This document shows positions 138 to 21,540 of a stretch of 23,056 bases of DNA, piece after piece (position 1 is the stretch's first letter; each line of letters starts with the position of its first letter). This DNA is from Bdellovibrionia bacterium (lineage in GTDB: Bacteria; Bdellovibrionota; UBA1018). A model generated the notes under the pieces. That model had not been told where the DNA came from, searched no databases, and saw nothing but the letters and a program-made list of their open reading frames with translations. Both the position numbers and the translations under genes were made by a program. The stretch spans positions 1 to 23,056 of the forward strand of contig JBJMMA010000170.1 in assembly GCA_045805065.1 (NCBI GenBank), in the 5' to 3' direction.

Positions 138-539
138 ATGCTAGCGACCGCAAAGCCCTATACCGAGAGCCCTACGATTCTGCTGATTGATGATGAGGAT
201 GCTATCCGTCATGTTCTGTCTCTAGCGTTGGAGTTTGAAGGCTATCAGGTATTTACTGCATCGAACGGAGAGGAAGGCCTCCGAACGCTGCGCCGGATTC
301 CACGTCCAGGATTGATCTTGTTGGATTTGATGATGCCGGTCATGGATGGCTGGGAGTTCATGGAAGTACTCCATAAAGATCCCGGCTTTTCAGATATCCC
401 GGTTGTGGTTATCACGGCCTTTAAAAACAGCAACGAGATCAAACATGCAGCTGCTGTCATCGAGAAGCCGGTCGAGTTGAATGAACTGTTCCAGGTTGCT
501 GGTCGATTCTGCCAAAGAAGAAAAGGTGGCCATGGCTAG
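138..539 (+). CDS. Single-domain response regulator (CheY-like receiver)
   Basis: ILLIDDE acidic pocket, LLDLMMP phospho-Asp, VITA and EKP motifs. ATG at 138 follows GGGGAG; the ORF track extends to a TTG at 90. Confidence 0.9.
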   Translation: MLATAKPYTESPTILLIDDEDAIRHVLSLALEFEGYQVFTASNGEEGLRTLRRIPRPGLILLDLMMPVMDGWEFMEVLHKDPGFSDIPVVVITAFKNSNEIKHAAAVIEKPVELNELFQVAGRFCQRRKGGHG

Positions 540-3345
540 CCGTGATTCTTCGGCAAGAAAAATTGAGGATTTTGAAGCTCACAACACGTTAGCGATTCTG
601 AGCGCTATCGTTGAGGGAACCCCTGATGCGATTTTCATAAAAGACGTGTCGGGCCGCTATATCATGATCAACGCGCCTGGTGCGAAATGGCTTGGCAAAG
701 ATGTAAGCGAGATCATTGGCAAGACGGATTGGGATTTGTTTGCTCCTGACATTGCCGAAGAATTCATTAAATCTGATCAGAAGATTTTAGCGACCGGACA
801 GACGATGAATTTTGATCAAGAGTTTGATGCAGGAGGTTCACATCGAATCGTCCATAGCGTCAAGGTGCCCTATAGAGACCCGAATGGAAATATCAGGGGC
901 ATCATTGGGATCTCTCGTGACATCTCAGGCTCAATGGAGAGTAAACAGCAATTAGAGAAGGCTAACTCCCTCATGAAGGCGACTCTTGAGTCTACGGCGG
1001 ATGGAATTCTTGTCATCGACAATGATGAGAACATCACAGGGTATAATCAGAACTTTCTCGATCTTTGGAAAATTAAAAAAAGCGATATTGATAAGCATGG
1101 ATACGAGTGGGCGCTCAAATTCGTTCTTGAGCAACTGTATCATCCCGAGCACTGCCTGGAGAGGATTCATGAGATCCGACGCTTTCCCGGCGAGGTAAGT
1201 TTTGACACGCTTTATTTCAAAGACGGAAGAGTCTTTGAGAGATATTCTCGGCCCCAGCGAATTGATGGTGCTGTTGTGGGTCGTGTGTTCAGTTATCGCG
1301 ACGTAACGAATGAAACCAGGGACCGCGCTGAGCGCGAGAACTATCTTGCGCTCCTGCGAACCACGCTCGATGCGACCAACGATGCAATTCTAGTCGTCAA
1401 CACCGAAGGGCGAACTGTCACCTACAACAAGAACTTCCTGAATGTATGGAGTATCCCACCCGAGATCATCGAGTCTCGAGATGATGCGGAGATGATCAAA
1501 TGGGTTAAAAATCAGATTAAGTCACCCGACGAATTCGTTAAAAAAGTTGAAGAGCTATATAAAAGCCCGTCAAAGGAAAGCTTTGATACGATTGAATTCA
1601 AATCAGGGAGAGTCCTGGAACGCTATTCTCGCCCTCATCGACTGGGAGACAAAGTCGTTGGACGAGTGTGGAGTTTTCGGGACGTCACAGCTAAAATCCA
1701 GGCGGAGCGCTCCTTGAAAGAAAGCGAGGCCAGAAAAGCTGCGATTCTTGCGTCCGCAATTGACCCGATAATCACCATGGACCGGGATGGAAAGATCGTT
1801 GAGCTCAATCCTGCCGCCGAGAAAACGTTTGGCTACATCAGCTCATATGCGATTGGCCGATCCATGGATTCCCTGATTATACCGCCGCGATTGCGTGAAG
1901 CTCATCGCAGAGGGATGGAACGTTATCTCGGAACAGGTGAGTCCCAGTATTTAGGGAGACGAGTGGAGCTTCCTGCGATGCGAGCCGATGGAACCGAATT
2001 TCCGGCAGAGGTCTCCATTATTGAAACGCGACTCGCAAATCAGTTTCTCTTCACAGGATTTATTCGAGATATTTCAGAGCGAAAACACAGCGAAGCCTTG
2101 ATTCGTCACGGCGCTGCTCAGATCAGGGCACTTGTGGAGGTGTCGCGCGATGTGATTGCGGCGGGTCTCGATCTTGGTCGCGTTTTAAATGCAGTGGTGA
2201 CACGAGTCTCGGCCTATTTTCAAGACGGGTGCGTGATTCGGCTCTTCAGTGAGGACTATACTCGTTTGAATACCGTTGCCTTCAGGCATTTTGACCCAAA
2301 AGCGGAAGAGTTCTTACGACCGTGGTTTGAAGGAGCCAACGAGTTTATCGATAAAGGTGCAACGCCTGATCTTCTGAAAGAGGGAAGGCCAGTCTCTGTC
2401 TCCGGTCCAGTCGAGGAGATCCGGAAAAGAATTGCGCCAGAGCTTTGGCCGGTTTTTGATCATTATCCTGTTCACTCATGGGTCATTGTTCCGCTGCGAA
2501 TGGCTGATCAGATGATCGGTACTCTGACCGTGTTTCGATATCGGTCCGCGCCTTCTTACACAGTTGAGGAAAACATCTGGCTCCAGGAAGTCGCCGATCG
2601 GGCCGCGCTGTCGATTGATAACGCAAGACTCTACACGGACGCTGTGCAGGCAATTCAGCTCAGAGAGGATTTCATGTCGATCGCGTCGCACGAGCTTAAA
2701 ACGCCCCTGACTCCATTGAAGATGCAGCTCCAGCTGCTGTCCCATCTGGTTCAGACGGGCGTGATGAACGTCGGACCACTCGAGGATAAGCTGAAGAAAG
2801 TGATTTCGGACTCGGATCAACAGATTGTCAGGCTTTCACGACTGGTGGACGACATCCTCGATGCGACCCGGCTTAGAACGGGTCAATTTGCTTTGCAACG
2901 TGAGATTGTTGATTTGAATTCTGTGGTCGCAGGCGCCATTGATCGTCTGAAAGAATCAAAGATGTCGGGCGCTAACGCCATTGAGTTTCATCCAGGCCAG
3001 CTGAAAGCAGGATTCTGGGATCGCTTGCGTCTTGAGCAGGTGGTGACCAATCTCATCAGCAATGCGCTCAAGTTTGGCGCGGGTAAGGCAGTGATTGTGA
3101 AAACTTCGATGCAAGATGGTTATGCCTTTTTCTCAGTCAAGGACTTCGGGATCGGAATCGCCAAGGAAAGTCATAAAAAAATATTTGAAAGGCTCGAAAG
3201 AGCTGTCTCCGTCAAGCAGTACGGAGGCTTAGGAATGGGCTTGTTCATCGCTCGACAAATTGTGGACCTCCACGGCGGTCGAATCCTTGTCGAAAGCAGT
3301 CCCGGAGCCGGCTCGACCTTCACAGTGGAACTGCCATTTCATTAA
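532..3345 (+). CDS. Cytoplasmic sensor histidine kinase (4 PAS + GAF + HisKA + HATPase_c)
   Basis: Four PAS repeats ending RDIS/RDVT/RDVT/RDIS, a GAF (VPLR...IGTLTV), H-box ASHELKTPL, N-box NLISNALKF, DFGIGI and GGLGMGL G-boxes; no obvious TM helix. ATG 532 overlaps the receiver stop. Confidence 0.93.
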   Translation: MASRDSSARKIEDFEAHNTLAILSAIVEGTPDAIFIKDVSGRYIMINAPGAKWLGKDVSEIIGKTDWDLFAPDIAEEFIKSDQKILATGQTMNFDQEFDAGGSHRIVHSVKVPYRDPNGNIRGIIGISRDISGSMESKQQLEKANSLMKATLESTADGILVIDNDENITGYNQNFLDLWKIKKSDIDKHGYEWALKFVLEQLYHPEHCLERIHEIRRFPGEVSFDTLYFKDGRVFERYSRPQRIDGAVVGRVFSYRDVTNETRDRAERENYLALLRTTLDATNDAILVVNTEGRTVTYNKNFLNVWSIPPEIIESRDDAEMIKWVKNQIKSPDEFVKKVEELYKSPSKESFDTIEFKSGRVLERYSRPHRLGDKVVGRVWSFRDVTAKIQAERSLKESEARKAAILASAIDPIITMDRDGKIVELNPAAEKTFGYISSYAIGRSMDSLIIPPRLREAHRRGMERYLGTGESQYLGRRVELPAMRADGTEFPAEVSIIETRLANQFLFTGFIRDISERKHSEALIRHGAAQIRALVEVSRDVIAAGLDLGRVLNAVVTRVSAYFQDGCVIRLFSEDYTRLNTVAFRHFDPKAEEFLRPWFEGANEFIDKGATPDLLKEGRPVSVSGPVEEIRKRIAPELWPVFDHYPVHSWVIVPLRMADQMIGTLTVFRYRSAPSYTVEENIWLQEVADRAALSIDNARLYTDAVQAIQLREDFMSIASHELKTPLTPLKMQLQLLSHLVQTGVMNVGPLEDKLKKVISDSDQQIVRLSRLVDDILDATRLRTGQFALQREIVDLNSVVAGAIDRLKESKMSGANAIEFHPGQLKAGFWDRLRLEQVVTNLISNALKFGAGKAVIVKTSMQDGYAFFSVKDFGIGIAKESHKKIFERLERAVSVKQYGGLGMGLFIARQIVDLHGGRILVESSPGAGSTFTVELPFH

Positions 3346-3586
3346 ACCAAAAGGTGGTCGCCTACTTTTGGTAGCGCACCTGCAGCAAAGTCCTGAAACC
3401 GAACAAAGCAAACAGAGTTCAGAATAAAGATAAAAGCCCTCGTTGTGACATCCTGTCACATTCCCCATCGCCTTCCTGGCTAGGAACGACTCGGTATTTC
3501 ACGTTCTTGTGAACTTGCTGTGATTTGCCCAGAGATCGTATGATGACGCGGTATCGCTACCAAAAGTAGGCGACCACCTTTTGGTT
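3345..3586. mobile_element. REPIN/MITE-like non-coding element bounded by perfect 32-bp terminal inverted repeats
   Basis: AACCAAAAGGTGGTCGCCTACTTTTGGTAGCG (3345-3376) is the exact reverse complement of 3555-3586. Each arm is itself a hairpin (ACCAAAAG-N11-CTTTTGGT). Mobility is inferred; no transposase is in the window. Confidence 0.6.
3438..3494 (-). ncRNA. Two-GGA-loop structured repeat, copy A (decayed basal stem about 3416-3515)
   Basis: Shares the exact 22-mer CCTCGTTGTGACATCCTGTCAC and GACTCGG with copies B and C. The minus strand reads CCGAGUC-GUUCC-UA-GCCAGGAAGGC-GAUGG-GGAAU-GUGACAGGAUGUCAC-AACGAGG. Expression as RNA is inferred. Confidence 0.6.
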
Positions 3587-4586
3587 AGGTCGCCAGGACT
3601 TGCGCGAGTTTCAGAAGGTCGGGGGAGAGGGACTTCTTTTTGCCGATGACGTCTTTGAATGGGACGCGTACGACTTTTCCGTCTCTTATACCCACCATCA
3701 CGTTGGAGATCCCGGCGGTCAGGTAGGCTGCGGCTGAGGCGCCTAGCGCTGAGGCTAGGAGGCGATCATGGGCTGTTGGGGCGCCACCGCGTTGGGTGTG
3801 GCCAAGGATTGCGACTTTTGCGCGATATCCGCGGCGCTCAAGATCATGGGCGAGGGAAGTGGTGGATCCGCCTTTCATTCCTTCGGTCACGACAATGATG
3901 CTGCTGGTTTTTCCGCGTCTCATGCCGCGATCAATCGTTGAGACGATTGAGGCTGCGGTTTCTTTTTTCTCGGGAACGATGATCGTTTCGGCGCCGCCAC
4001 CAATTCCGGTCTCAACAGCAATGAAGCCTGAGGCGCGGCCCATGACTTCAACGAGGAAAATGCGATCATGCGAGCTTGCGGTATCGCGAATGCGGTCAAT
4101 GGCGTCGACTGCTGTGTTGACGGCCGTATCAAAGCCAATCGTATCGTCGGTGCCTGCGATGTCATTGTCGATTGTGCCTGGAATTCCCATCGTTGGAAAA
4201 CCGGTTTCTTTTTCAAGAAGGTGAGCGCCTGTGAAAGATCCATCGCCACCGATGACAACGAGGCCATGGATCCCTTTGCGCTCCAGGATGTTTGCGGCTT
4301 CTCTGCGAACGGACTTCTTATGGAAAGCAGGGCAGCGGTCGGTCTTTAAAATCGTTCCGCCGCGCTGGATGATGTTGGCAACGGATGAGGCATCCAGGCG
4401 ATGAATCTGCCCTTCCAGCAATCCGCTATAGCCGCGCATGACGCCGTATACTTCCACGCCATGGGCAATGGCATATCGGACTACGGCGCGGACAGCGGCA
4501 TTCATTCCCGGAGCATCCCCACCGCTGGTGAGAACTCCGATGGATTTAAGCTTAATTTGCGAAGGAAGGTTTGGAACCTGAAGCAT
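3585..4586 (-). CDS. pfkA: ATP-dependent 6-phosphofructokinase
   Basis: TSGGDAPGMNAA, IGGDGS, PGTIDNDI, VEVMGR and LGHTQRGG motifs; ATG at 4586 with GAGGA upstream. Confidence 0.97.
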   Translation of the reverse strand: MLQVPNLPSQIKLKSIGVLTSGGDAPGMNAAVRAVVRYAIAHGVEVYGVMRGYSGLLEGQIHRLDASSVANIIQRGGTILKTDRCPAFHKKSVRREAANILERKGIHGLVVIGGDGSFTGAHLLEKETGFPTMGIPGTIDNDIAGTDDTIGFDTAVNTAVDAIDRIRDTASSHDRIFLVEVMGRASGFIAVETGIGGGAETIIVPEKKETAASIVSTIDRGMRRGKTSSIIVVTEGMKGGSTTSLAHDLERRGYRAKVAILGHTQRGGAPTAHDRLLASALGASAAAYLTAGISNVMVGIRDGKVVRVPFKDVIGKKKSLSPDLLKLAQVLAT

Positions 4587-4598
4587 CAATGACAGTCC

Positions 4599-9757: not shown

Positions 9758-10330
9758 TTACTCAGCCTTTGCCTTCTTAGAGGTCGAGGCTTTCTTGGTG
9801 CCTGCTGCCTTAGCGGTCTTAGCCTTAGCTGGAGCTGCTGCTTCAGTCTTTGCTCCACCCGCTGCGCGAGCAGCTTTCATGCGCTTGCGAGAGCCGAGGG
9901 TCTTAGGCGTGAATGCCTCGCCCTTTGCCTTCAAGTGCGATTGGAACTTAGAAAGTGTAGCTTTCTTAGCTGCATCGTCAAGAGCTGCCTTTTCGCCTGC
10001 GCCGTTGTCCACAGCAGTCACGAGGAGCTGCGTGTAATATTGGCGATGACCTTGCGTACGGCGATATTGCTTACGGCGCTTCATCTTGATGATGAGGATT
10101 TTGTCGCCGCGGCCTTGGCCGACGATTTCGGCTTGAACGGAAGCGCCACTGAGAAGGGGCTTACCGAGCCAAACTTGTGAGCTGTCGCCGTTTGGCTTGC
10201 TCACGAAAAGGACGCGATCAAGCTTCAAAGCCGATCCAACGTCACCTTCAAGCTTCTCGACCTGGACGATGTCGCCTGGCGAGACGCGATATTGTTTACC
10301 ACCTGTTTCCATCACTGCGTAGATTGACAT
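9758..10330 (-). CDS. rplU: 50S ribosomal protein L21 with a long basic C-terminal extension
   Basis: YAVMETGGKQYRV.PGD...VEKL and KRRKQYRRTQGHRQ.YT; about 80 extra Lys/Ala-rich residues follow. Start placed at ATG 10330. Confidence 0.96.
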   Translation of the reverse strand: MSIYAVMETGGKQYRVSPGDIVQVEKLEGDVGSALKLDRVLFVSKPNGDSSQVWLGKPLLSGASVQAEIVGQGRGDKILIIKMKRRKQYRRTQGHRQYYTQLLVTAVDNGAGEKAALDDAAKKATLSKFQSHLKAKGEAFTPKTLGSRKRMKAARAAGGAKTEAAAPAKAKTAKAAGTKKASTSKKAKAE

Positions 10331-10339
10331 AGACGCAGC

Positions 10340-10368
10340 AAATTGCCCCAAGAGGATAGAGCTGTCAA
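10340..10368 (-). promoter_or_regulatory. Candidate sigma70 promoter for rplU
   Basis: TTGACA-N17-CAATTT on the minus strand: perfect -35, weak -10, ending 9 nt before the ATG. Confidence 0.35.
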
Positions 10369-10385
10369 GGCTCTTTAGCTGGCAT

Positions 10386-11780
10386 TTATCGATTTGGTCG
10401 GCTGTTTTTTTTGGCGCCCTTGCCGGTGCTCTTGCTCGTGCTTTGGGCGATGTACTTCTGGGCCTCTATAATCCGTTTGAGCAGGCGCCCTTCAGGAATA
10501 TTTGTGACCTTTCCGTCTTTAAAAACAAGGTTTCCATCGACCATCGTCCATTGAACCTCGGATGGCATGGTCGAATAGACCACAGAGGACGCAATGGCTT
10601 CAGGATTGGTTTCCTGGCCTGCTGGAATCGTATTACGGATGGTTTGGAGGTTCAGGGCGACCAAATCGGCCTTTTTGCCCACCTCAATGGATCCAATATC
10701 GTCCTGCCAGCCGAGCGCTTTGGCACCACCTAAGGTCGCCATATCGAGGACTTCCTGAGCGCGCATCGCCATAGGGCCGGTACCTGGCTTATGGATCAGG
10801 GCAGCCATGCGCATCTCCTGGAAAATATTGAGAGTATTGTTACAAGGCGCCCCGTCCGCACCCAGGGCAACGTTGATTCCGCGCTTTAAAAGGTCTGGGA
10901 CATGCGCAAAGCCTGAAGCCAGCTTCATATTGGAGCAGGGGCAATGAACAACGTGCGTGCCGGTCGTCTCGAGGATCTTCTTTTCATTGGGCTTAAGCCA
11001 GATGCAGTGGGCGAGAACGAGGCGATTGGAAGTCATTCCCAGCTGATGCAAGTACTCGACGTTCTCACATTGAACGAGCTTTTTGACCATCTCGATCTCT
11101 TTGAGATTCTCGCTCGCATGCGTGTGAATGACGGCGTTTTGCTCTCGAGCAAGGCGCGCCACTTCTGTCAGCAATTTTTCCGTGCAAGAAATCACGAAAC
11201 GAGGAGCGTAGGAGACGCGAATCCGGTCATTCTCGCGGCCATTCCATTTTTCGAAAAGCATGCGTGCTTCGGCAATCGCATCGCGAGTCGGCTCACGAAG
11301 ACCTTCCGGAGTCGTCTCTGGATGATCCATCAGGCATTTGCCAACGCTTGCACGAATTCCGCTTTCACGAACGGCTTCAAAAATGCTCTCCGTGTGACGA
11401 ACGGTTCCCATGTCGAGAATGCAGGTCGTTCCGGAGGAGAGAAGCTCATGAATTCCCATCATGGCACTCGTATAGAGCGTTTCTTCAGTATGAGCTGCCT
11501 CGTAAACCCAGATGCGCTTGGAGAGCCAATCGAGGAGCTCCATATCGTCAGCCTGGTTACGGAAAAGGGTCTGGCAGAGGTGAATATGCGCCTGCACAAA
11601 ACCTGGCAAAATCGTGAGGCCCTTGGCATCGAGGATCGTGACGCCTTTTTTCTTCTTATTGGGGGCCTTCGTGGTGATTGCAGCAATGCGACCGTCCACG
11701 ATCTGGAGGTTCGCGCGCAGAGCGCGGCGGTTTTTGTCCTGAGTGAAGAGTACCCCGTTGATAATCCAAGTTTCGGCCAT
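10386..11780 (-). CDS. Metal-dependent amidohydrolase, MTA/SAH/5'-deoxyadenosine deaminase-like
   Basis: PGFVQAHIHLCQTLFR (HxH), HTHASE, LAHCIW, HCPCSNMKLASG, GADGAPCNN, GSIEVGKKADL; substrate not determinable. Confidence 0.85.
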   Translation of the reverse strand: MAETWIINGVLFTQDKNRRALRANLQIVDGRIAAITTKAPNKKKKGVTILDAKGLTILPGFVQAHIHLCQTLFRNQADDMELLDWLSKRIWVYEAAHTEETLYTSAMMGIHELLSSGTTCILDMGTVRHTESIFEAVRESGIRASVGKCLMDHPETTPEGLREPTRDAIAEARMLFEKWNGRENDRIRVSYAPRFVISCTEKLLTEVARLAREQNAVIHTHASENLKEIEMVKKLVQCENVEYLHQLGMTSNRLVLAHCIWLKPNEKKILETTGTHVVHCPCSNMKLASGFAHVPDLLKRGINVALGADGAPCNNTLNIFQEMRMAALIHKPGTGPMAMRAQEVLDMATLGGAKALGWQDDIGSIEVGKKADLVALNLQTIRNTIPAGQETNPEAIASSVVYSTMPSEVQWTMVDGNLVFKDGKVTNIPEGRLLKRIIEAQKYIAQSTSKSTGKGAKKNSRPNR

Positions 11781-11872: not shown

Positions 11873-12523
11873 ATGGAATATCCAAAAATTGGGCGTGTTA
11901 CGAGCGAGTCAGTTCATAAGGGTACGGGTAAAACCTGGGATCAATGGGTTTTGATTCTGGAGAAGGCCGGTGCTCGCACTTGGACTCATCAGGAAATCGT
12001 CGCGTTCTTGAAGAAAAAGCACAAACTCGGGCCCTGGTGGCAGCAGGGCGTGGCCATGGGTTTTGAGATCGCGACGGGCCGCCGAGTCGAGGGCCAGAAC
12101 GCAAAAGGCGAGTATGGCCTGACCGTGACGAAATCCATTCGCCTGGATGTTAAAAAGGTTTTGAAATTTTTCATGAGCGAAGAGGGAATTGCGATCTGGC
12201 TTCAGCCTTTGTTTGAAATCGCAATCAAGCCCAAGTGCATGTTTGAAACGCAGGATGGGTATTTTGGCGAGATCCGGACCGTCATGAAGCCTGTTCAGGA
12301 TCCTTCCGCGAAATCGGCGAAAGTCGAGCGCCGGATCCGCATGAGCTGGCAGGATCCCAATTGGGATTACAGCACCTCGGTCGAAGTGATGTTTGTAGCG
12401 CGCGCCAATGGAAGCTCAATTGTGGCTTTCAATCACGGCAAGATTAAAGACACCAGAGTCCAGGCCAAGCTTCGCGCGCGCTGGCGAAAAGCGCTCGATG
12501 AGTTAGCTGAAAAATGCTCTTAA
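11873..12523 (+). CDS. Hypothetical protein, DUF4287-like N-terminus plus SRPBCC/START-like C-terminus
   Basis: TGKTWDQW...H.EIVAFL...H.LG.WW N-terminal pattern; C-terminal RIRMSW...SIVAFNH...RARWRKAL resembles AHSA1/SRPBCC. Candidate TTGAAA-N16-TAAAGT promoter upstream. Confidence 0.65.
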   Translation: MEYPKIGRVTSESVHKGTGKTWDQWVLILEKAGARTWTHQEIVAFLKKKHKLGPWWQQGVAMGFEIATGRRVEGQNAKGEYGLTVTKSIRLDVKKVLKFFMSEEGIAIWLQPLFEIAIKPKCMFETQDGYFGEIRTVMKPVQDPSAKSAKVERRIRMSWQDPNWDYSTSVEVMFVARANGSSIVAFNHGKIKDTRVQAKLRARWRKALDELAEKCS

Positions 12524-12557: not shown

Positions 12558-12588
12558 TAACCAAAAGGTGTCGGATACCTTTTGGTTA
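12558..12588. repeat. REP-like palindrome, possibly a bidirectional terminator, between convergent genes
   Basis: TAACCAAAAGGTGTCGGATACCTTTTGGTTA has 12 perfect pairs and shares AACCAAAAGGTG with the 3345/3586 repeats; its last 3 bases are the stop codon of the 12586 gene. Confidence 0.75.
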
Positions 12589-13995
12589 GTTTGAAGAGAT
12601 GGCGCCGATATCGAGGCCACTCGTATTGTTGCGTGACTTGGCGCTTTGCTGATGAACGTACTCATTTACAGGCAGGAGCGAATAGTTATTCACAATGCCT
12701 GGGTCTGCCGCCGTGTGAATCAGAGGCGAGCCTGCCAAAGGCTTCAGATTGAAGTTGGCCTTATCCGTAAACATCGGGCTATTGCCCACGTAATTTGAGG
12801 CCTGAGAAGCCAGGTTTGCCATGTTGTTGATGAGAGTGCCGCCGCCCACGATGGCGTTGTTCTTGATGACGGCCGTGCCTCCGTTTGCGACTTGCACAAT
12901 GTTGCCACTTCCTCGGTCGTTCAAAATCGTGTTGTTCACGACGTACAGGTGAGTGTCATGGCCAGCGGTGTAGCCTTCAGAGCCAAAGTCGATGATCCCA
13001 GAATTACCCGTGTTGGAAGTCTGCTGGATAATGTTGCCGATAACGTAAGACTCGCCAGCGTTTGGAAGGTTGATCTCGTAGCTATCGAATCCAGCTTCAC
13101 CGGTCAGGCGGTTATTGTAGATGTAGTTGTGCTGGGCGCGCGATTTGAGCAGATGCCCGTCATGGCGCGTATTGGTCGAGTAGTTGTAACGGAAGGTGAG
13201 GTTTGCGACTTCACCAATGTAGAGGTTATGGGAATAGCTATCGCTGCTGTTCTGAGAAAAGTAGGAGTTCTCGATCAGAAACGAGCTTGCCGTGTTGACG
13301 CCGGCCAGAATTCCATCATCGTTCAGGGTGAATGAGCAGTTACGAATGGTGATGTTCGTGCCTTCCATGCGAATGCCTGCGCCGTTCATGTCCGCGCTAC
13401 AGCTTGAGTTGGCAACCCATGGATCGCCCGGATTAAGGGTGGCACCGGTAAAAGCGATGTTCTCAATGACGGTATCGTTTCCGCTGACGACAAAAATTCC
13501 TTTGCAGCCAGCAGGGCGCACGGTGTGCGAATCCATAATGACAGTCGGGCTTCCAGTCGTGGCAGGGCCGCGAATCGTCAGTCCGTTTTTACTGATGTAG
13601 CAGGTCTCCACGTAAGTGCCCGCATCGATTTGAATCGTGTCGTTATTGGCTGCCGCAGCAATGGCTGCGCAAGGACTTGCGTACATTTTGCCCGAGCCCA
13701 CGGTGAGAACGTGGCCCGATGGAGTAGGTGCAACGGGAAGGTCTGGGAAGCTGTAAGAGGAGAGAGTCGTGCCGCCACCTCCGCCTCCACCGCCTGAACC
13801 TGAGCCTCCGCCACCGCCATTTCCTGAACCCGATCCATTACCGGATCCAGTGCCTGGATCTGAAGGTGAGCCCGATGGGCTTGTCTGGCTGAGCTTAATC
13901 GAGGTGGAAGGTTGCACCAGCTCGCAGGCGCTCAGGCTGACCATTGCAAAAATGGCAGCAAAGGATGCTGTTGAAACGGATTTGAGTTTCCCCAT
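12586..13995 (-). CDS. Lipoprotein with Gly/Ser linker and right-handed parallel beta-helix (pectin-lyase-like) domain
   Basis: Signal peptide ending in an LSAC lipobox, poly-G/S linker, Asn-ladder repeats (IENIAF, IRNCSF, IENSYF, IYNNRL, VIGNII, VVNNTI) and a C-terminal DIGA motif. Confidence 0.8.
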   Translation of the reverse strand: MGKLKSVSTASFAAIFAMVSLSACELVQPSTSIKLSQTSPSGSPSDPGTGSGNGSGSGNGGGGGSGSGGGGGGGGTTLSSYSFPDLPVAPTPSGHVLTVGSGKMYASPCAAIAAAANNDTIQIDAGTYVETCYISKNGLTIRGPATTGSPTVIMDSHTVRPAGCKGIFVVSGNDTVIENIAFTGATLNPGDPWVANSSCSADMNGAGIRMEGTNITIRNCSFTLNDDGILAGVNTASSFLIENSYFSQNSSDSYSHNLYIGEVANLTFRYNYSTNTRHDGHLLKSRAQHNYIYNNRLTGEAGFDSYEINLPNAGESYVIGNIIQQTSNTGNSGIIDFGSEGYTAGHDTHLYVVNNTILNDRGSGNIVQVANGGTAVIKNNAIVGGGTLINNMANLASQASNYVGNSPMFTDKANFNLKPLAGSPLIHTAADPGIVNNYSLLPVNEYVHQQSAKSRNNTSGLDIGAISSN

Positions 13996-14191: not shown

Positions 14192-15022
14192 ATGCAAAAC
14201 CCTTGGCAACAAGCATTTCCAAAGGATCACCGCGAGCTTCTCAGAGCTGAGTTCGCGCGTCGGTGTGCCCGGAATGGTCGATACTCGATCCGCTCTTATG
14301 CACGCGACCTGGGAATTGCTCCATCGACGCTGACCGAGGTGATGAACGGGCGCTATGGTCTTTCACGTGCCAAAGCTCTTAAAGTGGGTGAGCGCTTAAG
14401 ACTGGATCGCGAGGCTTGCGAGCATTTTGCGGATCTTTTTGAATCCAAGTTTCATCGAAGCGAGACCCGCCGTAAGGCTGCAGTCCTCAGAGTTCGGCAA
14501 AAGAGCCGTCCAGCGACAACGATGAGCCTTGATACTTTCCAGGTGATTGCCGAATGGTATCACTTCGCGCTTTTGGAGCTGGTTTGTCTCATGCCGGAGG
14601 CTACCCCTCGAGAACTGGGCCGAAGGCTTGGGCTTCGATCCAATGTCATTGAGGATGCGATCCAGCGATTGATCCGAGTGGGGCTTTTGAAGCAAGAGAA
14701 TGACAGGCTGATTCCTTCGGATAACTTCACAGCCGTTGGAAATGAGACGCCATCCGCAGCGCTCGTCAAATATCATCAAGGACTGCTCAATAAGGCGCTC
14801 GTGGCGCTTGAGACTCAGCCCGTTGAGCGCCGCAATTTCTCAAACACGATTTTTACGATGGATCGCTCCAGGCTTGAAGAAGCCAAGCGCGACCTCAAAC
14901 GCATGCGACTTGAGTTTGCCGAAAAATACGGACCCGGATCCACGACGCCAGGAAATGACGTCGTATGTCTCGGGATGCAGCTTTTCAGTGTGTTGGAAGA
15001 AAATGGGGGAGAGAACCTATGA
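14192..15022 (+). CDS. TIGR02147/DUF4423-family HTH protein (putative regulator)
   Basis: RN.RYSIRSYARDLGIAPSTLTEVMNGRYGLS XRE-like HTH, F.VIAEWYHFALLEL, second wHTH-like AIQRLIRVGLL, YHQ.LL.KA..ALE, C-terminal MQLFS. Family recognised from motifs; start placed at ATG 14192. Confidence 0.85.
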   Translation: MQNPWQQAFPKDHRELLRAEFARRCARNGRYSIRSYARDLGIAPSTLTEVMNGRYGLSRAKALKVGERLRLDREACEHFADLFESKFHRSETRRKAAVLRVRQKSRPATTMSLDTFQVIAEWYHFALLELVCLMPEATPRELGRRLGLRSNVIEDAIQRLIRVGLLKQENDRLIPSDNFTAVGNETPSAALVKYHQGLLNKALVALETQPVERRNFSNTIFTMDRSRLEEAKRDLKRMRLEFAEKYGPGSTTPGNDVVCLGMQLFSVLEENGGENL

Positions 15023-16647
15023 GATTTCTTGTTTTAGCAGGATGTCTTTTGATTGCAGGAATGACCCATGCAGGCTCGGGCGGGATTCGCGATGGCGGCA
15101 ACGGGGGCGATGCGGTTGTTTGTCGCAATTCGTCCGGGGCGATTCAAAAAATCGAAATGCTCGATGTTCTTGAGGCACGCACACTTTATGGTTTGAGCCC
15201 AAAGCTTGGAGCAAGCAATCTGAGCATTGAGCAAAAGCTTGAGACCGTTTTTCAGCAGATTGAGCGCCTCAATCCAACTCGTGCCAAGCGTTATCGAGAA
15301 GCTATTCAGGGCTGGGCTTTGAATAAAATTGAATGGACCCAAGATGAGCTCAAGGACATCCCCGATTCGGATCACAATCTGATCCCTGTGGGCTGCAAGA
15401 TTGAGCAGATCGCAATTCGCCAAGACCCTGACTATGATTATTACCATCGCGGGCTCGTGCTCACGGTTCAGCAAAACCTTTGGCGAGCGATGGATTTAGA
15501 TAATCAAGCAGCGCTCATTCTTCACGAGCTTTTCTACTGGGACACGCAGCATCTCACTTTCATCACTAACTCCAGGCCTGCGCGCTATCTCAATGCCCTG
15601 GCTTTTTCAGGCCAGCTTGCCGCATTGGATTCGGCCGCTTTCTTCAAGCTTGCTAAAGAGTACTTGCCGGACGTGGATTACGCTGGATGGGTCATCGACC
15701 CGCGATCGCTTGAGCTTTATCCCGATGGAAAGATGAAAAAAGCCACTGACGGTGGCTATAATCACAAGCTCGCAGACATCGTGATTCAAGGCCAAACCAT
15801 CTCGGCCGAGCGAGTAGTCGAATTCAGACCGGATGGGCATGTCTCTCATACGATGATCAGTGACCCAAAGACGCTGATGACTCGTTATGGGAAGGCGAAA
15901 ATCTCAGGCGAGTTAGACTTTGACTCAAACGATGTTGTGGTTAATTTTGATCAGCTCGAAGAAACGACTCCGCTTGTGATTGGAGACGCACATTTCAGTT
16001 GTGATCGTGGTGAAGTCAAAACTTGGGATGGTTTGGAACTTCGATGCCTGGTGACTGCTCAATCTGAAGTTTTGAGCCCTCGCATGAAGCTCAAGGTCGT
16101 CAAAGGCGGCAAGGCTGTTTTTGATAAGTACGGCTTGAAAGACATTTATCCTAAAACCGAATTTACAGGTCAGCTCACTTCATCTCAGGGGCAGTTTCGT
16201 TTCAAGCGCCTTTACAACAAGGGGCATTATGAATGGAAAGACTGCTACGACGCTACTTGCGCGGGGGAGTTAGATGGACCTCATCAAGTGGTCGTTGACG
16301 GGACTCGCATCTCCATTGCAGGAAGGGTGGAATTTGCCAATTTCGAGAGACTGCTTTATTTAGAGCCTCAGGAAGATTTCATCTTTCACGGCATACCCGT
16401 CGCATCTCGCGTAAAATGCGGATTCGTTGGAAGCAAGGTTGTTCCGACGGTCTTTTTCATCGGGCAGCCAGCTCAGATGGTTCTTTCAGAGAGAATGAGC
16501 TGGACAGTTCCTTTCGAGAAAAAGACCGTGTCGGCAGACGCTGGCGACATGGTGACCTTTTATTACGGGTACAGCAACACACCTTACGAAAAAGAAACGA
16601 AGCACTGGTGCGACGTTTATAAAAAATATTTTCCGGAGGCCCCATGA
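15019..16647 (+). CDS. Secreted hypothetical protein (GGNGGD N-terminus, HExxY motif, beta-repeat C-terminus)
   Basis: Signal peptide MRFLVLAGCLLIAGMTHA; GGNGGDAVVC; AALILHELFY; ATGA overlap with the upstream stop; GGGGGAG RBS. Confidence 0.8.
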   Translation: MRFLVLAGCLLIAGMTHAGSGGIRDGGNGGDAVVCRNSSGAIQKIEMLDVLEARTLYGLSPKLGASNLSIEQKLETVFQQIERLNPTRAKRYREAIQGWALNKIEWTQDELKDIPDSDHNLIPVGCKIEQIAIRQDPDYDYYHRGLVLTVQQNLWRAMDLDNQAALILHELFYWDTQHLTFITNSRPARYLNALAFSGQLAALDSAAFFKLAKEYLPDVDYAGWVIDPRSLELYPDGKMKKATDGGYNHKLADIVIQGQTISAERVVEFRPDGHVSHTMISDPKTLMTRYGKAKISGELDFDSNDVVVNFDQLEETTPLVIGDAHFSCDRGEVKTWDGLELRCLVTAQSEVLSPRMKLKVVKGGKAVFDKYGLKDIYPKTEFTGQLTSSQGQFRFKRLYNKGHYEWKDCYDATCAGELDGPHQVVVDGTRISIAGRVEFANFERLLYLEPQEDFIFHGIPVASRVKCGFVGSKVVPTVFFIGQPAQMVLSERMSWTVPFEKKTVSADAGDMVTFYYGYSNTPYEKETKHWCDVYKKYFPEAP

Positions 16648-18371
16648 GTTTATCAATGAAACATCTGCGTCCTTTAGTGATGGGGCTTGTTCTGGCTCAA
16701 GTAGTCTCTTTCTCGGGTGCTCGTGCAGAAGAGCCGGCAACGTCTCATTGGACACTGGGTGCCCAGGCGGTCGTCTGCCACGAGGCTTCAGGAGATCGCA
16801 TTTTTCCGCTTTCTCGCCTGGGACATTACGAGCACGAATTTGAACCGATCTCCGGAGCAAATTGGCAGTCGGTGCTCGATGGGATTTTTTCTCGAGTCGC
16901 CAGACTCAATCCATCGCGGGCCAAAAGATTTCGCGAAAAATATGCTGAGCTGATGACAACCAGTCGCTTTCTCTCCGGTGTTTCACTCCAATATCAAGAT
17001 CAGCCGTGGCCTCCGGTCTCATTGCCTGGCGGGTGTGAAACTCGTTCCATCGCTGTTTTGCGGGCGGAAGCGATGCCTCTGCAGCCTCGCTTGATTGTTG
17101 ATAGTGATCTTTGGAACAAGCTCGATGATCAGAGTCGCGCGATCACATTCTTTGAGATCCTGTTCTCTGATGAGCTCTGGCATTATTCGGATCCTTACTC
17201 TCATCCGTCATATGAGAGCCCGATGACTTATATCGAGGCTCATTACAAAAAAGTGTGGAAGATTTCCACTCTGGTGACCTCTAAGGAAATGAGTCAACAA
17301 AGTCAGGACAGTTGGCTGAAGCTTCTGCAAGAAGTTTTTTATGGGGTTGATGGGGATTGGAACGGATGTCGTTTTCCGGTTGCTGATTATCTCCGCTTTC
17401 AAACATATTCTGATGCCTGGAGTACTACGTTCCTAGATGGTCCTTGTCCGGTCTTGATTCAGGGAAAGAAGGTCTCGGCAACAGAAGTAAAAGTGGACGC
17501 AGATGGACGGGTTGCAATGGCAGTTGTAGCGGATGCTGAATTATCGACTCGTTCAGGCAAGAAGGTCGCGGTTTCAGGATGGGCTTATTTTGATCAGGAT
17601 GGTTTTTTGACCACTGCGACTTTGAAAGGAATCCAGACTTTTACGTCAGGATCGGGCCAAGAGTTTGTCTGCCAGATCCATGCAAGTTTTGATTCAAAAA
17701 CGGGAGTACTCGAGGAGTGCGAAATAGCGCTGCCAATTAAAATAGAAACGCCCCACCAAAAGATCGAATTGAGTCCGGTCACATCTGACTACCAACCTTG
17801 TCAAAGTATGACCAGCTATTCCGTCAGTTTCTTACCCAATGGGGATTGGAATCCTCTCCATGGCGGCTCTTACGCTTGCCAGTATGTGGCGCGCGGAAAT
17901 TTTTTAATCAGCAATCAATGGGTGAGGGGAGAGCGCTTTGCTGGGGATGATTTCGCTCTGGCCAATTTCAAATTAGACCAAGACGTGAGCTACCAGGTGA
18001 AAGGGATCGATTTTGCCGCAAAGGCCGGCGAAAAAATCCCTGTCTATTTTGACGAAAAAGGTCACTTCTTTATGGGTGGCAAGATCTCACAGTCCATCAC
18101 CGTCGACACATCTGACGGAAAGCACACCTTGGGCACGGGCAAGTGTTTCCCGAATTTCTGGAAGACCTACGACAGCACCACGCTTTTCTATCCTGACGGC
18201 AAACTGGCCATGGGAGTGATTCCTGGCGACAGTCAGTTTTATATGCAGCCACATCTCTTCGAGGACGGTCGGGTCGTAGAACTTCATGGAACGGCGAGGG
18301 TTGTGTTGAACCGAGATGGAACTATTAGGGACTGGGACAAAAACCTCTGCAACGATCCGCCCCCTCACTAA
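16644..18371 (+). CDS. Secreted hypothetical protein, paralog of the upstream gene
   Basis: Signal peptide ending ARA; shares AVVC, RLNP.RAKR, GC....IA and LW..[ML]D...A motifs with the 15019 gene; ATGA overlap; repeated [FY]xxDG turns in the C-terminal half. Confidence 0.8.
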   Translation: MSLSMKHLRPLVMGLVLAQVVSFSGARAEEPATSHWTLGAQAVVCHEASGDRIFPLSRLGHYEHEFEPISGANWQSVLDGIFSRVARLNPSRAKRFREKYAELMTTSRFLSGVSLQYQDQPWPPVSLPGGCETRSIAVLRAEAMPLQPRLIVDSDLWNKLDDQSRAITFFEILFSDELWHYSDPYSHPSYESPMTYIEAHYKKVWKISTLVTSKEMSQQSQDSWLKLLQEVFYGVDGDWNGCRFPVADYLRFQTYSDAWSTTFLDGPCPVLIQGKKVSATEVKVDADGRVAMAVVADAELSTRSGKKVAVSGWAYFDQDGFLTTATLKGIQTFTSGSGQEFVCQIHASFDSKTGVLEECEIALPIKIETPHQKIELSPVTSDYQPCQSMTSYSVSFLPNGDWNPLHGGSYACQYVARGNFLISNQWVRGERFAGDDFALANFKLDQDVSYQVKGIDFAAKAGEKIPVYFDEKGHFFMGGKISQSITVDTSDGKHTLGTGKCFPNFWKTYDSTTLFYPDGKLAMGVIPGDSQFYMQPHLFEDGRVVELHGTARVVLNRDGTIRDWDKNLCNDPPPH

Positions 18372-18376
18372 AAAAC

Positions 18377-18522
18377 AGATCACCGAGCAATAAAAAAAGA
18401 ATCGGGAATCGAGTTAAAAGGCCTCGTTGTGACATCCTGTCACGTTCCTTTGGCCCATCCTGGGCGGGAACGACTCGGCTTTTAACTCGATTCCCGATTC
18501 TTTTTTTATTGCTCGGCGATCT
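18377..18522 (-). ncRNA. Two-GGA-loop structured repeat, copy B, on a 44-bp stem
   Basis: Arms 18377-18420 and 18479-18522 are complementary at 43/44; the exception is A.C on + and G-U on -. Core 18422-18478 on the minus strand has GCCCAGGAUGGGC and GUGACAGGAUGUCAC hairpins. Confidence 0.7.
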
Positions 18523-18664
18523 TTTTGCTTCTCGTTGAATCGGCTTCTGGTGCGACTTTATTTCCCGGCGCCGGGGACGCATTGAGCTCACGGTCGCCGT
18601 CGGAAGTCCCCACCAAGAGTTATCAGCATGGCACTGCGACAGCGTCAAAGACCGGAAAATCGAT

Positions 18665-18787
18665 CAAATCAAAACAAGCTGAGATTCAAACTAAAACCCG
18701 AGTCCTTCCAGCCAGGATGGCGACAGGAAGTGTGACAGGATGTCACAACGAGGGGTTTTAGTTTGAATCTCAGCTTGTTTTGATTTG
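18665..18787 (+). ncRNA. Two-GGA-loop structured repeat, copy C, on a perfect 35-bp stem
   Basis: Arms 18665-18699 and 18753-18787 are exact reverse complements. Core 18698-18753 has GCCAGGAUGGC and UGUGACAGGAUGUCACA hairpins. Confidence 0.7.
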
Positions 18788-18789
18788 CT

Positions 18790-19242
18790 TTATTTTCCGA
18801 GAAAATCTGGCGTGAAAGCATCGGGCATGATGTCGCCAAAGCGCTGCACTCGAACGTCACCCTGAAGATTCGCGGCGTAGAGCGGAATCTCTGGGCTTGC
18901 GAACTCAGCGATCACTTGGCGGCAAAAACCGCATGGGGGCCATGGATAAGCGGAGTCGGTGACGACTGCGACTTCGGCGACTTTGATTTTGCCGTTTTCG
19001 CTCACGGCTTTGAAGATCGCCGTGCGCTCAGCGCAGACGGTTCCGCCGTAAGAGGAGTTTTCGATGTTGCAGCCGGTGAAGATTTCGCCGTTTTTCAGAC
19101 GAATGGCAGCGCCTACTTTGTGTTTGCTGTAGGGGCTGTACGAGCGTTTACGAGCTGCAGTCGCGGCTTTAATCAGCTCGCGAACAGGAGCCGATTGCTC
19201 CCGAACTTTAGCAAGTCCTGAAGCTTTGCTCGTTTTCTTCAT
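18790..19242 (-). CDS. cdd: Cytidine deaminase (homotetrameric type)
   Basis: YSPYS..KVGAA, GCNIENSSYG.TVCAER.AI, PCGFCRQVI.EF zinc motifs. Confidence 0.95.
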   Translation of the reverse strand: MKKTSKASGLAKVREQSAPVRELIKAATAARKRSYSPYSKHKVGAAIRLKNGEIFTGCNIENSSYGGTVCAERTAIFKAVSENGKIKVAEVAVVTDSAYPWPPCGFCRQVIAEFASPEIPLYAANLQGDVRVQRFGDIMPDAFTPDFLGK

Positions 19243-20178: not shown

Positions 20179-20218
20179 CTCATCGAGCCTAATCGAGTCT
20201 AATCGGGCCTAATCGAGT
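20179..20218. repeat. About 4 imperfect 10-bp tandem repeats duplicating the pdp 3' end
   Basis: catcgagcct aatcgagtct aatcgggcct aatcgagt; the rightmost unit corresponds to the final pdp codons. Confidence 0.8.
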
Positions 20219-21540
20219 TGATCCACGATGAGCTTTGGTACTGCTTTTCGGGTCGAACTGATTTCAATGGCTTCATGGAAGCGCTCTTCAAGTGCTTGAA
20301 GCGACTGAGGATCTGAGTAATGAACGGTCACAAGAGCGTCGCCGGCCTGGACCTTGGCGCCCAGCTTTTTGTGGAAAACGAGGCCCACGCCAAAATCGAT
20401 CGAGTCCGATGCTTTTCTGCGGCCTCCGCCCAGATCGACCAAAATCCAGCCCAAGGCCTGGGTGTCCATCCAGTTGAGGTAGCCACGCTTTTTAGCGTTC
20501 CAGGTCGTGGTGTATTTGGCCTTGGGAAGCTTCTCAGGGTGAATGACCTGATTGACGTCGCCGCCCTGGCCTTTGACCATTTCTTTGAAGATCTTCCAAG
20601 CCGAGCCATCCGCCAGGCGCGCGTGCGCAAGTTTGCGGCCTTCGGTGACGCTCTTTACGGCGCCTCCGACTTGAAGCATGTGAGCGCAAAGCTGGATCGT
20701 GAGTTCTTTAAGATCAGCGGATGAGTTTTCTGCGCTCTTGCCGTTTTGAAGAATCTCGATGCACTCTTTCACTTCGAGCGCATTTCCTGCGGCATAGCCC
20801 AGAGGCTGGCTCATATCGGTGAGAAGAGCGCGGCAGGGGAGATCCATTTTCTTGGCGACTTGAATGAGCGTGCGAGCAAGCTTTCTGGCTTGCTCGCGGT
20901 TTTTCATGAAAGCGCCGTTTCCGACTTTCACGTCCATGACGAGAGCGTCGGTGCCTTCAGCAAGTTTCTTGGAGAGAATGGAGGCGACGATGAGTGGAAT
21001 GCATTCCACCGTTCCCGTCACGTCACGGAGCGCGTAAAGCTTTTTATCAGCAGGAGCAATCTGCTCGCTTTGTCCGATGATTGCGCAACCAATGTCGCCC
21101 ACAAGCTTTTCGTAAGTCTCTTTGGGAGGACGAACGTTGTAGCCAGAAATGGCTTCAAGCTTATCGAGTGTTCCGCCGCTATGGCCAAGCCCACGGCCTG
21201 CCATCATCGGAACTTTCAGTCCGCAAGCGGCAACCAGAGGCGCCAAAATCAGCGAAACCTTATCGCCTACGCCGCCGGTGGAGTGCTTATCGACTTTGGT
21301 TCCAGGGATCTTGGAGAGATCATAGCGAAAGCCACTCTCAAGCATCGCGCGAGTGAGTGACACCGTCTCATCAAAGGACATGCTTCGAAAGTACGTCGCC
21401 ATGAGAAACGCGGTTGCCTGATAGTCGGGAATTTCGCCCGCAGTGATTCCTGCGATAAATTCGCGGATCTCCTGATCAGTAAGTTCTTTGCCGTCGCGCT
21501 TGCGCGAAATCGTGATTGCCGGATTTTGAGAAACGATCAT
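20209..21540 (-). CDS. pdp: Pyrimidine-nucleoside/thymidine phosphorylase
   Basis: KRDG, DKHSTGGVGDK, GRGLGHSGGTLDKLE, APADKKLYALRDVT, SILSKK. Confidence 0.95.
   Translation of the reverse strand: MIVSQNPAITISRKRDGKELTDQEIREFIAGITAGEIPDYQATAFLMATYFRSMSFDETVSLTRAMLESGFRYDLSKIPGTKVDKHSTGGVGDKVSLILAPLVAACGLKVPMMAGRGLGHSGGTLDKLEAISGYNVRPPKETYEKLVGDIGCAIIGQSEQIAPADKKLYALRDVTGTVECIPLIVASILSKKLAEGTDALVMDVKVGNGAFMKNREQARKLARTLIQVAKKMDLPCRALLTDMSQPLGYAAGNALEVKECIEILQNGKSAENSSADLKELTIQLCAHMLQVGGAVKSVTEGRKLAHARLADGSAWKIFKEMVKGQGGDVNQVIHPEKLPKAKYTTTWNAKKRGYLNWMDTQALGWILVDLGGGRRKASDSIDFGVGLVFHKKLGAKVQAGDALVTVHYSDPQSLQALEERFHEAIEISSTRKAVPKLIVDQLD

Follow-up and report, generated by a model that had tools for sequence, protein, structure and literature searches.

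A dispersed family of GGA-loop hairpin elements in a Bdellovibrionota genome: a probable relative of TwoAYGGAY, in part with REPIN-type anatomy

What is the two-hairpin element that recurs in the 23,056-nucleotide stretch of DNA analysed here (the window), presenting GGA in both of its loops? An initial annotation of the sequence had described three dispersed copies of a structured element and had suggested that it might be a CsrA-type sponge or docking site, possibly an undescribed relative of the TwoAYGGAY motif. The window is one contig (C170) of a 4.22 Mb draft Bacteriovoracaceae MAG with 262 contigs and 94% completeness. An exact 22-mer, CCTCGTTGTGACATCCTGTCAC, occurs three times in the window, at 3438-3459 (+), 18422-18443 (+) and 18732-18753 (-), compared with none in 100 dinucleotide-preserving shuffles and none expected in the window. 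The three copies sharing this word are therefore confirmed, and the proposed pairing agrees with the sequence in its lower stems of hairpin 1 (CUUCC/GGAAG, GUUCC/GGAAC and GUUCC/GGAAU), its upper stems of hairpin 1 (GCC/GGC versus GCCC/GGGC), hairpin 2 (GUGAC-AGGAU-GUCAC) and the closing motif (CC-GA-GU...AC-GA-GG). Three features described below did not figure in that annotation: the role of the 47-48 bp arms in defining the element, its REP termini, and the link to a RAYT gene.

Every core caps an inverted repeat of great length whose sequence is peculiar to its copy; in copies 2 and 3 this repeat takes the form of near-perfect stems of 47-48 bp. Copy 1 (3345..3586, - strand) is a long form, a REPIN-type unit of 242 nt in which a REP hairpin, a subterminal arm, the module and an inverted REP hairpin follow one another. 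The ends of the unit (3345-3376 and 3555-3586, 32 nt) are 100% complementary, and abut the TAA stops of two convergent genes, which ORF and Pfam analysis identifies as encoding a PAS/GAF histidine kinase (481-3345, +) and a phosphofructokinase (3585-4589, -). The left REP hairpin with its GTAG tag (3347..3377, +; CCAAAAGG-TGGTCGCCT-ACTTTTGG-TAGCGC) has one mismatch to the 31-mer REP consensus, and the inverted right hairpin (3554..3584, -) has two. The module, comprising the two-hairpin apex and its inner arms (3418..3517, -), is matched by R1, our covariance model of the family, with 91.4 bits (E = 5e-26); its core is located at 3438-3494, and the inner arms are partly degraded in the fold.

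Copies 2 and 3 are short forms that lack REP ends. They make up a divergent doublet, flanked by an ORF without Pfam family and a cytidine deaminase gene. The left member (18373..18526, -) has 48-bp arms at 18373-18420 and 18479-18526, which are 96% complementary, around a core at 18421-18478; the right member (18653..18799, +) has 47-bp arms at 18653-18699 and 18753-18799, which are 94% complementary, around a core at 18700-18752. As RNA they fold with -96.4 kcal/mol (z = -15.8) and -80.8 kcal/mol (z = -13.1), respectively, and in each case none of 200 shuffles folds equally well. R1 matches copy 2 at 18402-18501 (103.1 bits) and copy 3 at 18675-18773 (100 bits). The spacer of the doublet (18527..18652) shows no conservation and is not a palindrome, and a search for promoter-like sites within it gave none.

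Based on an nhmmer profile of the core, the genome contains 32 full copies and 2 divergent ones, plus fragments at contig ends. R1, which was built from 34 copies of this genome, gives 37 matches at E <= 0.01, and the Rfam model of TwoAYGGAY (RF01731) adds 2 copies that form a third subfamily, so that the family comprises three subfamilies and no fewer than 39 full copies. All 33 full copies that were folded have a common plan of a long arm pair, a closing motif, hairpin 1 and hairpin 2. The closing motif, CC-GA-G(U/C)...(A/G)C-GA-GG, encloses hairpin 1 with its two-part stem and hairpin 2; its tandem G.A is near-invariant in the main subfamily, and genus g33 has CCGAC...GGAGG. The loops are mostly CAGGAUG, the dominant form, or CAGGAAG, and rarely CAUGGAUG, with a GGA-to-GGA spacing of 23-24 nt in 31 of the 33 copies. 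The five doublets of the genome, including that of the window, are all divergent, and the distance between model matches is 107-173 nt in four of them; a sixth divergent doublet is found in the related genome G002. Comparison of the doublet spacers with each other revealed no conservation and no palindrome.

The alignment used to analyse covariation combined 34 sequences of this genome with 24 from relatives, 58 in all. In this alignment, which was fitted to the model and consists of mutually related sequences, 94.0% of paired cells hold standard pairs versus 59.5% after shuffling (none of 500 shuffles reached the observed value), 30 of the 33 pairs vary on both sides, the covariation score is 0.804 versus 0.172, and helices 4-6 are paired in 91-96% of cells with both sides changing; 3' partners that were slid as a control paired in at most 50.2%. 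Thus, both the dispersed multicopy family and the strong structure with compensatory change that had been claimed from three copies are borne out.

The family extends to other genomes of the lineage. R1 matches were found in 11 of 41 related genomes (10 matches in the sister species, 4 in another genus of the family), and in 5 of 151 genomes of a phylum-wide sample, all belonging to one order, under stricter filters and with few candidates scored per genome. The relatives carry arms of unrelated sequence whose length often exceeds 100 bp, and whole stretches of 356 nt form a single hairpin of -190 to -231 kcal/mol. The apex keeps its two CAGGAUG loops there, some of them replaced by CAUGGAUG. 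A search of viral contigs for the exact 22-mer gave no matches.

Does this family belong to a known class? At gathering thresholds there was no Rfam match in the window, and over the whole genome no RF01731 match above the cut-off of 43 bits. Below the cut-off, 9 of the 34 copies are matched by RF01731 over its full length, with 30.5-38.9 bits and on the GGA strand only; copy 3, for instance, matches the full model at 18658-18794 with 37.8 bits. None of the 34 reaches 43 bits, the best score being 38.9. Matches to miRNA precursors that appear with E-value thresholds (MIR847, MIR8643 and others) were rejected, as these plant and animal families reflect a generic long hairpin.

Weinberg et al. 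(2010, PMC2864571) listed TwoAYGGAY for gamma-proteobacteria, Clostridiales and the human gut, and it has been an orphan motif since 2010, for which a CsrA sponge and a mobile-like expansion are the two proposals. Gardner and Eldai (2015) report that a model of the CsrA site matched TwoAYGGAY and propose CsrA sequestration (PMC4333381). A preprint of September 2026 (bioRxiv 10.64898/2026.09.22.753630) describes an elongated basal stem for the motif in Bacillota, and for Pseudomonas doublets that are divergent in 68.4% of cases with a median distance of 249 bp, as well as REP arrays at a fixed downstream position; high copy number is already reported in it, and a spread resembling that of mobile elements is already proposed. 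The words REPIN, RAYT and Bdellovibrio are absent from its main text.

The element described here resembles this class in having two sequential hairpins on a common elongated basal stem, with GGA central in both loops. Its tandem G.A also recalls one in the TwoAYGGAY stem (PMC4333381), a likeness of occurrence in which the position was not compared with the Rfam seed. As far as the published descriptions go, both are intergenic and multicopy, with divergent doublets a few hundred bases apart and an association with REPs, and a role in Csr/Rsm binding has been proposed. There are also clear differences. Most loops here read A-GGA-Y (CAGGAUG) and so lack one base of AYGGAY, and the copies do not carry AYGGAY in both terminal loops as TwoAYGGAY does. 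Where AUGGAU does occur, it occupies a single one of the two loops; this is the case for 2 of the 34 main copies, for 2 of the 4 copies of subfamily C (those on C181 and C89; those on C19 and C143 read differently) and for the relatives G007, G015 and G029. The arms here are near-perfect and copy-specific over 47-48 bp, and over more than 100 bp in relatives. An inverted REP pair flanks the module, whereas downstream arrays are described for P. fluorescens SBW25, and the host is a member of the Bdellovibrionota, while the sources cited name Pseudomonadota and Bacillota in addition to the hosts given above.

We conclude that the three copies of the window are very probably structured elements of the TwoAYGGAY class. 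With loops that lack one base and scores that stay under the threshold, the element falls outside RF01731 as now defined; we take it for a divergent variant of the class and not for a member of that family. A relationship to TwoAYGGAY had been put forward in the initial annotation, and it is upheld by the full-length sub-threshold matches and by the occasional AUGGAU loops. The further claim that this relative is undescribed stands in part: no copy reaches the RF01731 threshold, but CsrA binding, copy number, doublets and REP association have all been published for the class. On this evidence, the feature is real, strongly structured and multicopy, and the CsrA idea, which is already published for the class, is a plausible proposal.

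How did the family become so numerous? Seventeen long-form copies, including copy 1, align over about 240 nt, and copy 1 aligns end to end with the other 16. The alignment ends sharply, similarity being lost at inverted terminal hairpins of the form CCAAAAGG-TGGTCGCCT-CCTTTTGG followed by GTAGCGC. About half of the copies (17-18) are flanked by such inverted GTAG-tagged REP hairpins, most of them with REP matches on both sides. The REP 31-mer, with up to 6 mismatches allowed, occurs 43 times in the genome; for 34 of these a core is no more than 230 nt away, and 3 (at 8328, 9065 and 9161) flank an ORF for a RAYT protein on contig C111 (8407-9060, -; 217 aa from an internal start). The REPs bracket this ORF in inverted orientation, are of the same hairpin type as those of the long-form copies, and beside the ORF form a pair of 127 nt without a module. 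The product matches NCBIfam REP_Tyr_transpos with 65.9 bits (E = 3.4e-18; below the cutoff of 80), Pfam Y1_Tnp with 17.6 bits (below the cutoff of 23), and the E. coli TnpArep structure (PDB 4ER8) with E = 2.5e-6. Further RAYT-like genes in the genome have other REP types. Since inverted GTAG-tagged REPs both flank the long-form copies and bracket the RAYT gene, the long-form copies are likely to be REPINs that carry the module at their apex or interior and depend on RAYT for carriage. An IS630/Tc1-type MITE with TA duplication was rejected as an identity for the element, the bases flanking the REP ends not being consistently TA.

The anatomy compares well with that of REPINs as described by Bertels and Rainey (2011; PMC3116915, PMC3337134), where two inverted REP hairpins and a spacer fold into one long hairpin, extragenic copies number in the tens, and the same REPs stand on either side of the RAYT gene; the GTAG tag on the REP likewise has a counterpart (compare PMC3733652). 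Two features differ from the published pattern. The spacer is here a conserved, covarying two-hairpin module that is also found without REPs or without a RAYT-like gene, and the unit of about 240 nt has no master sequence, all arm pairs being different. What this analysis adds is twofold: a REPIN/RAYT anatomy seen directly in about half of the copies, and evidence that the arms are kept up at DNA level around a conserved apex.

The module itself does not depend on RAYT, as is evident from the short forms without REP ends and from genus g33, in which three genomes, each 98% complete and with 1-3 modules, gave no RAYT-like match (0/3). Nor does the presence of a RAYT-like gene discriminate between genomes, as one is found in 9 of 11 genomes with modules and in 19 of 30 without. 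In a pattern search, no REP hairpins were found beside three RAYT-like loci of the sister species. At two orthologous sites the sister species lacks the element; the flanking genes there are only about 78% identical, a divergence too high for exact insertion boundaries to be drawn.

The arms behave quite differently from the rest of the element. Within a copy they are highly complementary (median 0.94 over the inner 32 nt), while the mean identity between copies is 0.586 for the arms, compared with 0.505 when arms are shuffled and 0.80 for the core. The highest arm identity between any two copies is 0.875 (87.5%), and no arm pair is held in common; as arms differ between all copies, there is no sign of recent transposition. 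In the model alignment, the 12-pair outer helix consists of 673 Watson-Crick pairs, 4 G.U, 4 A.C and 15 transversion mismatches. A selected RNA helix would tolerate G.U; that G.U and A.C are instead equally and extremely rare points to complementarity kept at the DNA level, which makes it rather likely that the arms are maintained as DNA palindromes. A strand signal in the arms was rejected on the same counts. In minimum-energy folds the arms had 65 G.U versus 25 A.C/C.A, a figure biased by folding in one orientation, and a strand-symmetric recount gave 35 G.U versus 65 A.C, dominated by a single inherited A.C position (GAACAAA/TTTGCTC).

Template switching or conversion within an element is a known mechanism, and complementarity might be maintained in this way between the two arms, instead of by selection on an RNA helix. 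Arms that are nearly random between copies and about 94% complementary within them would represent a clean case of concerted palindrome evolution. Hairpin MITEs of bacteria, such as Correia, ERIC and RUP, are also short non-autonomous repeats at gene ends whose transcripts fold into long hairpins, but their copies have the whole sequence in common and decay by uncompensated mutation. By contrast, the arms studied here vary between copies yet remain complementary, and consistent TA target duplication is not seen at the element ends.

Palindromic arms of this kind raise the possibility that the element is a purely selfish DNA repeat, with an apex read as single-stranded or cruciform DNA by a protein of mobilisation or replication, and no role of the GGA loops in RNA or with CsrA. 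The rarity of both G.U and A.C (4 each among 696 cells) is in accord with such a repeat, and so are the sharp ends of the long form at REP hairpins and the presence of a RAYT gene. Many copies are located at contig ends, as is common for repeats, and no synteny was found between the low-copy modules of two g33 genomes, so that module sites differ within one genus. Furthermore, scans of 18200-18950 and 3200-3750 revealed no sigma-70-like promoter, and orientation relative to flanking genes is inconsistent. Several points count against it. The REP ends and the core are conserved while the arms are near random, which indicates selection on the core in each copy; the excess of core over arm identity (0.80 versus 0.586), and loops that remain constant across genera with unrelated stems, likewise argue that selection acts on each copy in place and not only on a master. 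The modules of g33 without a RAYT-like gene also speak against it, as does evidence for a single functional strand, namely the tandem G.A and the wobble pairs of the two hairpins. In hairpins 1 and 2, G.U outnumbers A.C by 16 to 4. We regard a purely selfish repeat as an unlikely account of the family.

The strand signal is weak over the core as a whole, as 32 G.U and 28 A.C are nearly equal when all core helices are counted. We favour the GGA strand as the structured one: on the opposite strand the tandem G.A would turn into a mismatch of pyrimidines, G.U exceeds A.C in the hairpins, and every RF01731 match lies on the GGA strand.

The copies are intergenic. Crude ORF finding allowed the genes on both sides to be called for 23 copies; they are convergent at 10 of these, tandem at 10 and divergent at 3, so that 20 of 23 adjoin at least one gene 3' end. 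With tandem genes, the GGA strand is co-directional in 3 cases and opposed in 7, and read-through transcripts would consequently contain mostly the UCC strand. The preference for gene ends suggests that the long hairpin might be a 3'-end structure, acting as a bidirectional transcription barrier or as a stabiliser of mRNA 3' ends, functions proposed for REPs, with an apex of minor importance. Besides the 20 copies at gene 3' ends and the 10 in convergent intergenic regions, the extreme stability of the hairpins and the two stop codons abutting copy 1 would fit such a function. It leaves unexplained the invariant GGA loops, the conserved tandem G.A and the divergence of five out of five doublets, and no U-tract terminator was called for the elements, the one weak terminator-like call being on the UCC strand of hairpin 2. 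We consider a mere 3'-end structure very improbable.

Could the GGA loops then be sites for CsrA? The genome has one csrA (90.9 bits), in the order flgL-like gene, csrA, fliW. As csrA is present in 38 of the 41 related genomes, including all 11 that bear modules, its presence does not discriminate between the hypotheses. With csrA next to fliW, the antagonist of CsrA is expected to be a protein and not an sRNA. The loop CAGGA(U/A)G corresponds to the CsrB repeat, and two sites at the GGA spacing seen here could be bridged by one CsrA dimer. Like the Csr/Rsm sponges (CsrB and CsrC, together with RsmX, RsmY and RsmZ), the family has GGA in hairpin loops in a genome that encodes CsrA. It differs from them in having two sites per unit and units at some 40 separate loci, where a sponge unites many sites in a single sRNA, in giving no Rfam match to any Csr/Rsm family in the window, and in the linkage of the host csrA to fliW. 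This linkage, the negative promoter scans and the orientation of the GGA strand, antisense to its neighbours in 7 of 10 tandem contexts, speak against a simple sponge. Judged by the fit of the GGA loops to the CsrA site, docking of CsrA on the apex is a candidate function, which we regard as possible and put forward with reserve. That a transcribed RNA serves another partner, either a different dimeric RNA-binding protein or an RNase III that processes the hairpin to arm-derived small RNAs, would suit the copy-specific arms of 47-48 bp (more than 100 bp in relatives), which should be good double-stranded substrates, and the location of csrA next to fliW, but a consistently adjacent gene for a partner protein was not found among the diverse contexts, we know of no site that fits the loops better than the textbook CsrA site, and the idea is highly doubtful.

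Our overall reading, which is a tentative one, is that of a TwoAYGGAY-class module that is partly carried by REPINs, has arms maintained as DNA, and presents at its apex a candidate dock for a protein that binds GGA loops. The module consists of an arm pair of 35-50 bp, exceeding 100 bp in relatives, and of a junction on top of it, which a tandem G.A closes and which bears the two loops. RAYT may have copied the composite REP-module-REP unit around the genome, mostly into gene 3' ends, whereas copies without REPs and the divergent doublets might represent a second, RAYT-independent layer that is also present in related genera. If the GGA strand is transcribed, the apex could dock one dimer of a GGA-loop-binding protein, for which CsrA is the best candidate, and the family might then constitute a distributed CsrA decoy or docking site.

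A stronger version, in which TwoAYGGAY-class modules are functional cargo of a REPIN-RAYT system that has placed a CsrA docking hairpin at dozens of gene 3' ends, appears improbable at present. Were it true, a lineage with FliW-type control of CsrA would gain a genome-wide layer of RNA decoys tunable by copy number, and a domesticated tyrosine transposase would explain the expansion of TwoAYGGAY, a matter left open in the main text of the recent preprint (bioRxiv 10.64898/2026.09.22.753630). As the module is situated at the apex of a REPIN whose REPs match a RAYT of the same genome, RAYT-dependent copying is directly testable in this system.

The results extend the TwoAYGGAY class to the Bdellovibrionota, predatory bacteria in which csrA is paired with fliW and RNA antagonists of CsrA are unexpected. 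Very little is known of regulation by CsrA in predators of this type, according to a report on B. bacteriovorus in which CsrA represses a hag reporter (PMC13443453). Compatible with a role for CsrA, 3 of 7 flagellin leaders of the present genome contain AYGGAY in an upstream hairpin loop together with GGA in the Shine-Dalgarno region, where a rough estimate of the chance expectation for AYGGAY in the leader sequence searched is about 1.

Two further genes resembling REP-associated tyrosine transposases (RAYTs) are present in the genome, in addition to the REP-bracketed RAYT gene on contig C111. One lies on C34 (about 40676-41366; NF047646, 73.2 bits) and adjoins a REP type of its own, AAAAGGTATGCCATACCTTTT, and the other lies on C152 (about 10046-10502; NF047646, 63.1 bits), with CCAAAGGTCGGGACGACCTTTGG as its own adjacent REP type. 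Thus, the genome has several REP/RAYT pairs.

Copy 1, a long-form element with REP ends, is situated between the convergent genes for a histidine kinase (481-3345, +) and a phosphofructokinase (3585-4589, -), and its REP ends reach the TAA stop codons of the two genes, with the outermost bases either adjoining or overlapping them (window 3343-3345 and 3585-3587). TAA or TTA is also found directly outside the REP in several further long-form copies. A solo REP-like hairpin, ACCAAAAGGT-GTCGGAT-ACCTTTTGGT, occupies window 12560-12589, flanked by the convergent ORFs 11873-12523 (+) and 12586-13995 (-). Its stem is identical to that of the element's REP ends, whereas the loop is different; some REP ends of other elements in the genome (C141, C246) carry this loop variant too.

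In the related genome G018, the giant hairpins L038, L049 and L055 are layered, with variable outer arms followed by a conserved subterminal motif, AAGACGTCCTCGCC, then variable inner arms and the apex. Several G018 copies have lost the GGA of hairpin 2, which reads AAGAU or ACGAU.

Three flagellin genes on C143 (starting at about 543, 1879 and 3207) each have a leader in which a hairpin presents AUGGAU or ACGGAU 30-70 nt 5' of the start codon, together with GGAGGA at the Shine-Dalgarno region. The hag leader of Bacillus subtilis is controlled by CsrA, and the combination of upstream loop and Shine-Dalgarno motif in the C143 leaders resembles its layout. Modules occur near flagellin genes as well: one (C143, 5730-5827, +) directly downstream of this three-gene cluster, and another (C249, 3215-3315, -) sharing its strand with a flagellin gene that it precedes by about 360 nt.

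Directly upstream of the doublet formed by short-form copies 2 and 3 (18373-18526 and 18653-18799) are two overlapping ORFs, 14965-16647 and 16644-18371 (560 and 575 aa), neither of which matched a Pfam family at E <= 0.001. At the end of the pyrimidine-nucleoside phosphorylase gene (ORF 20209-21540, -) there is a tandem repeat (20179-20218) with a 10-nt unit similar to CTAATCGAGT; the repeat finder lists it as three 20-nt copies that overlap, each offset from the next by 10 nt.
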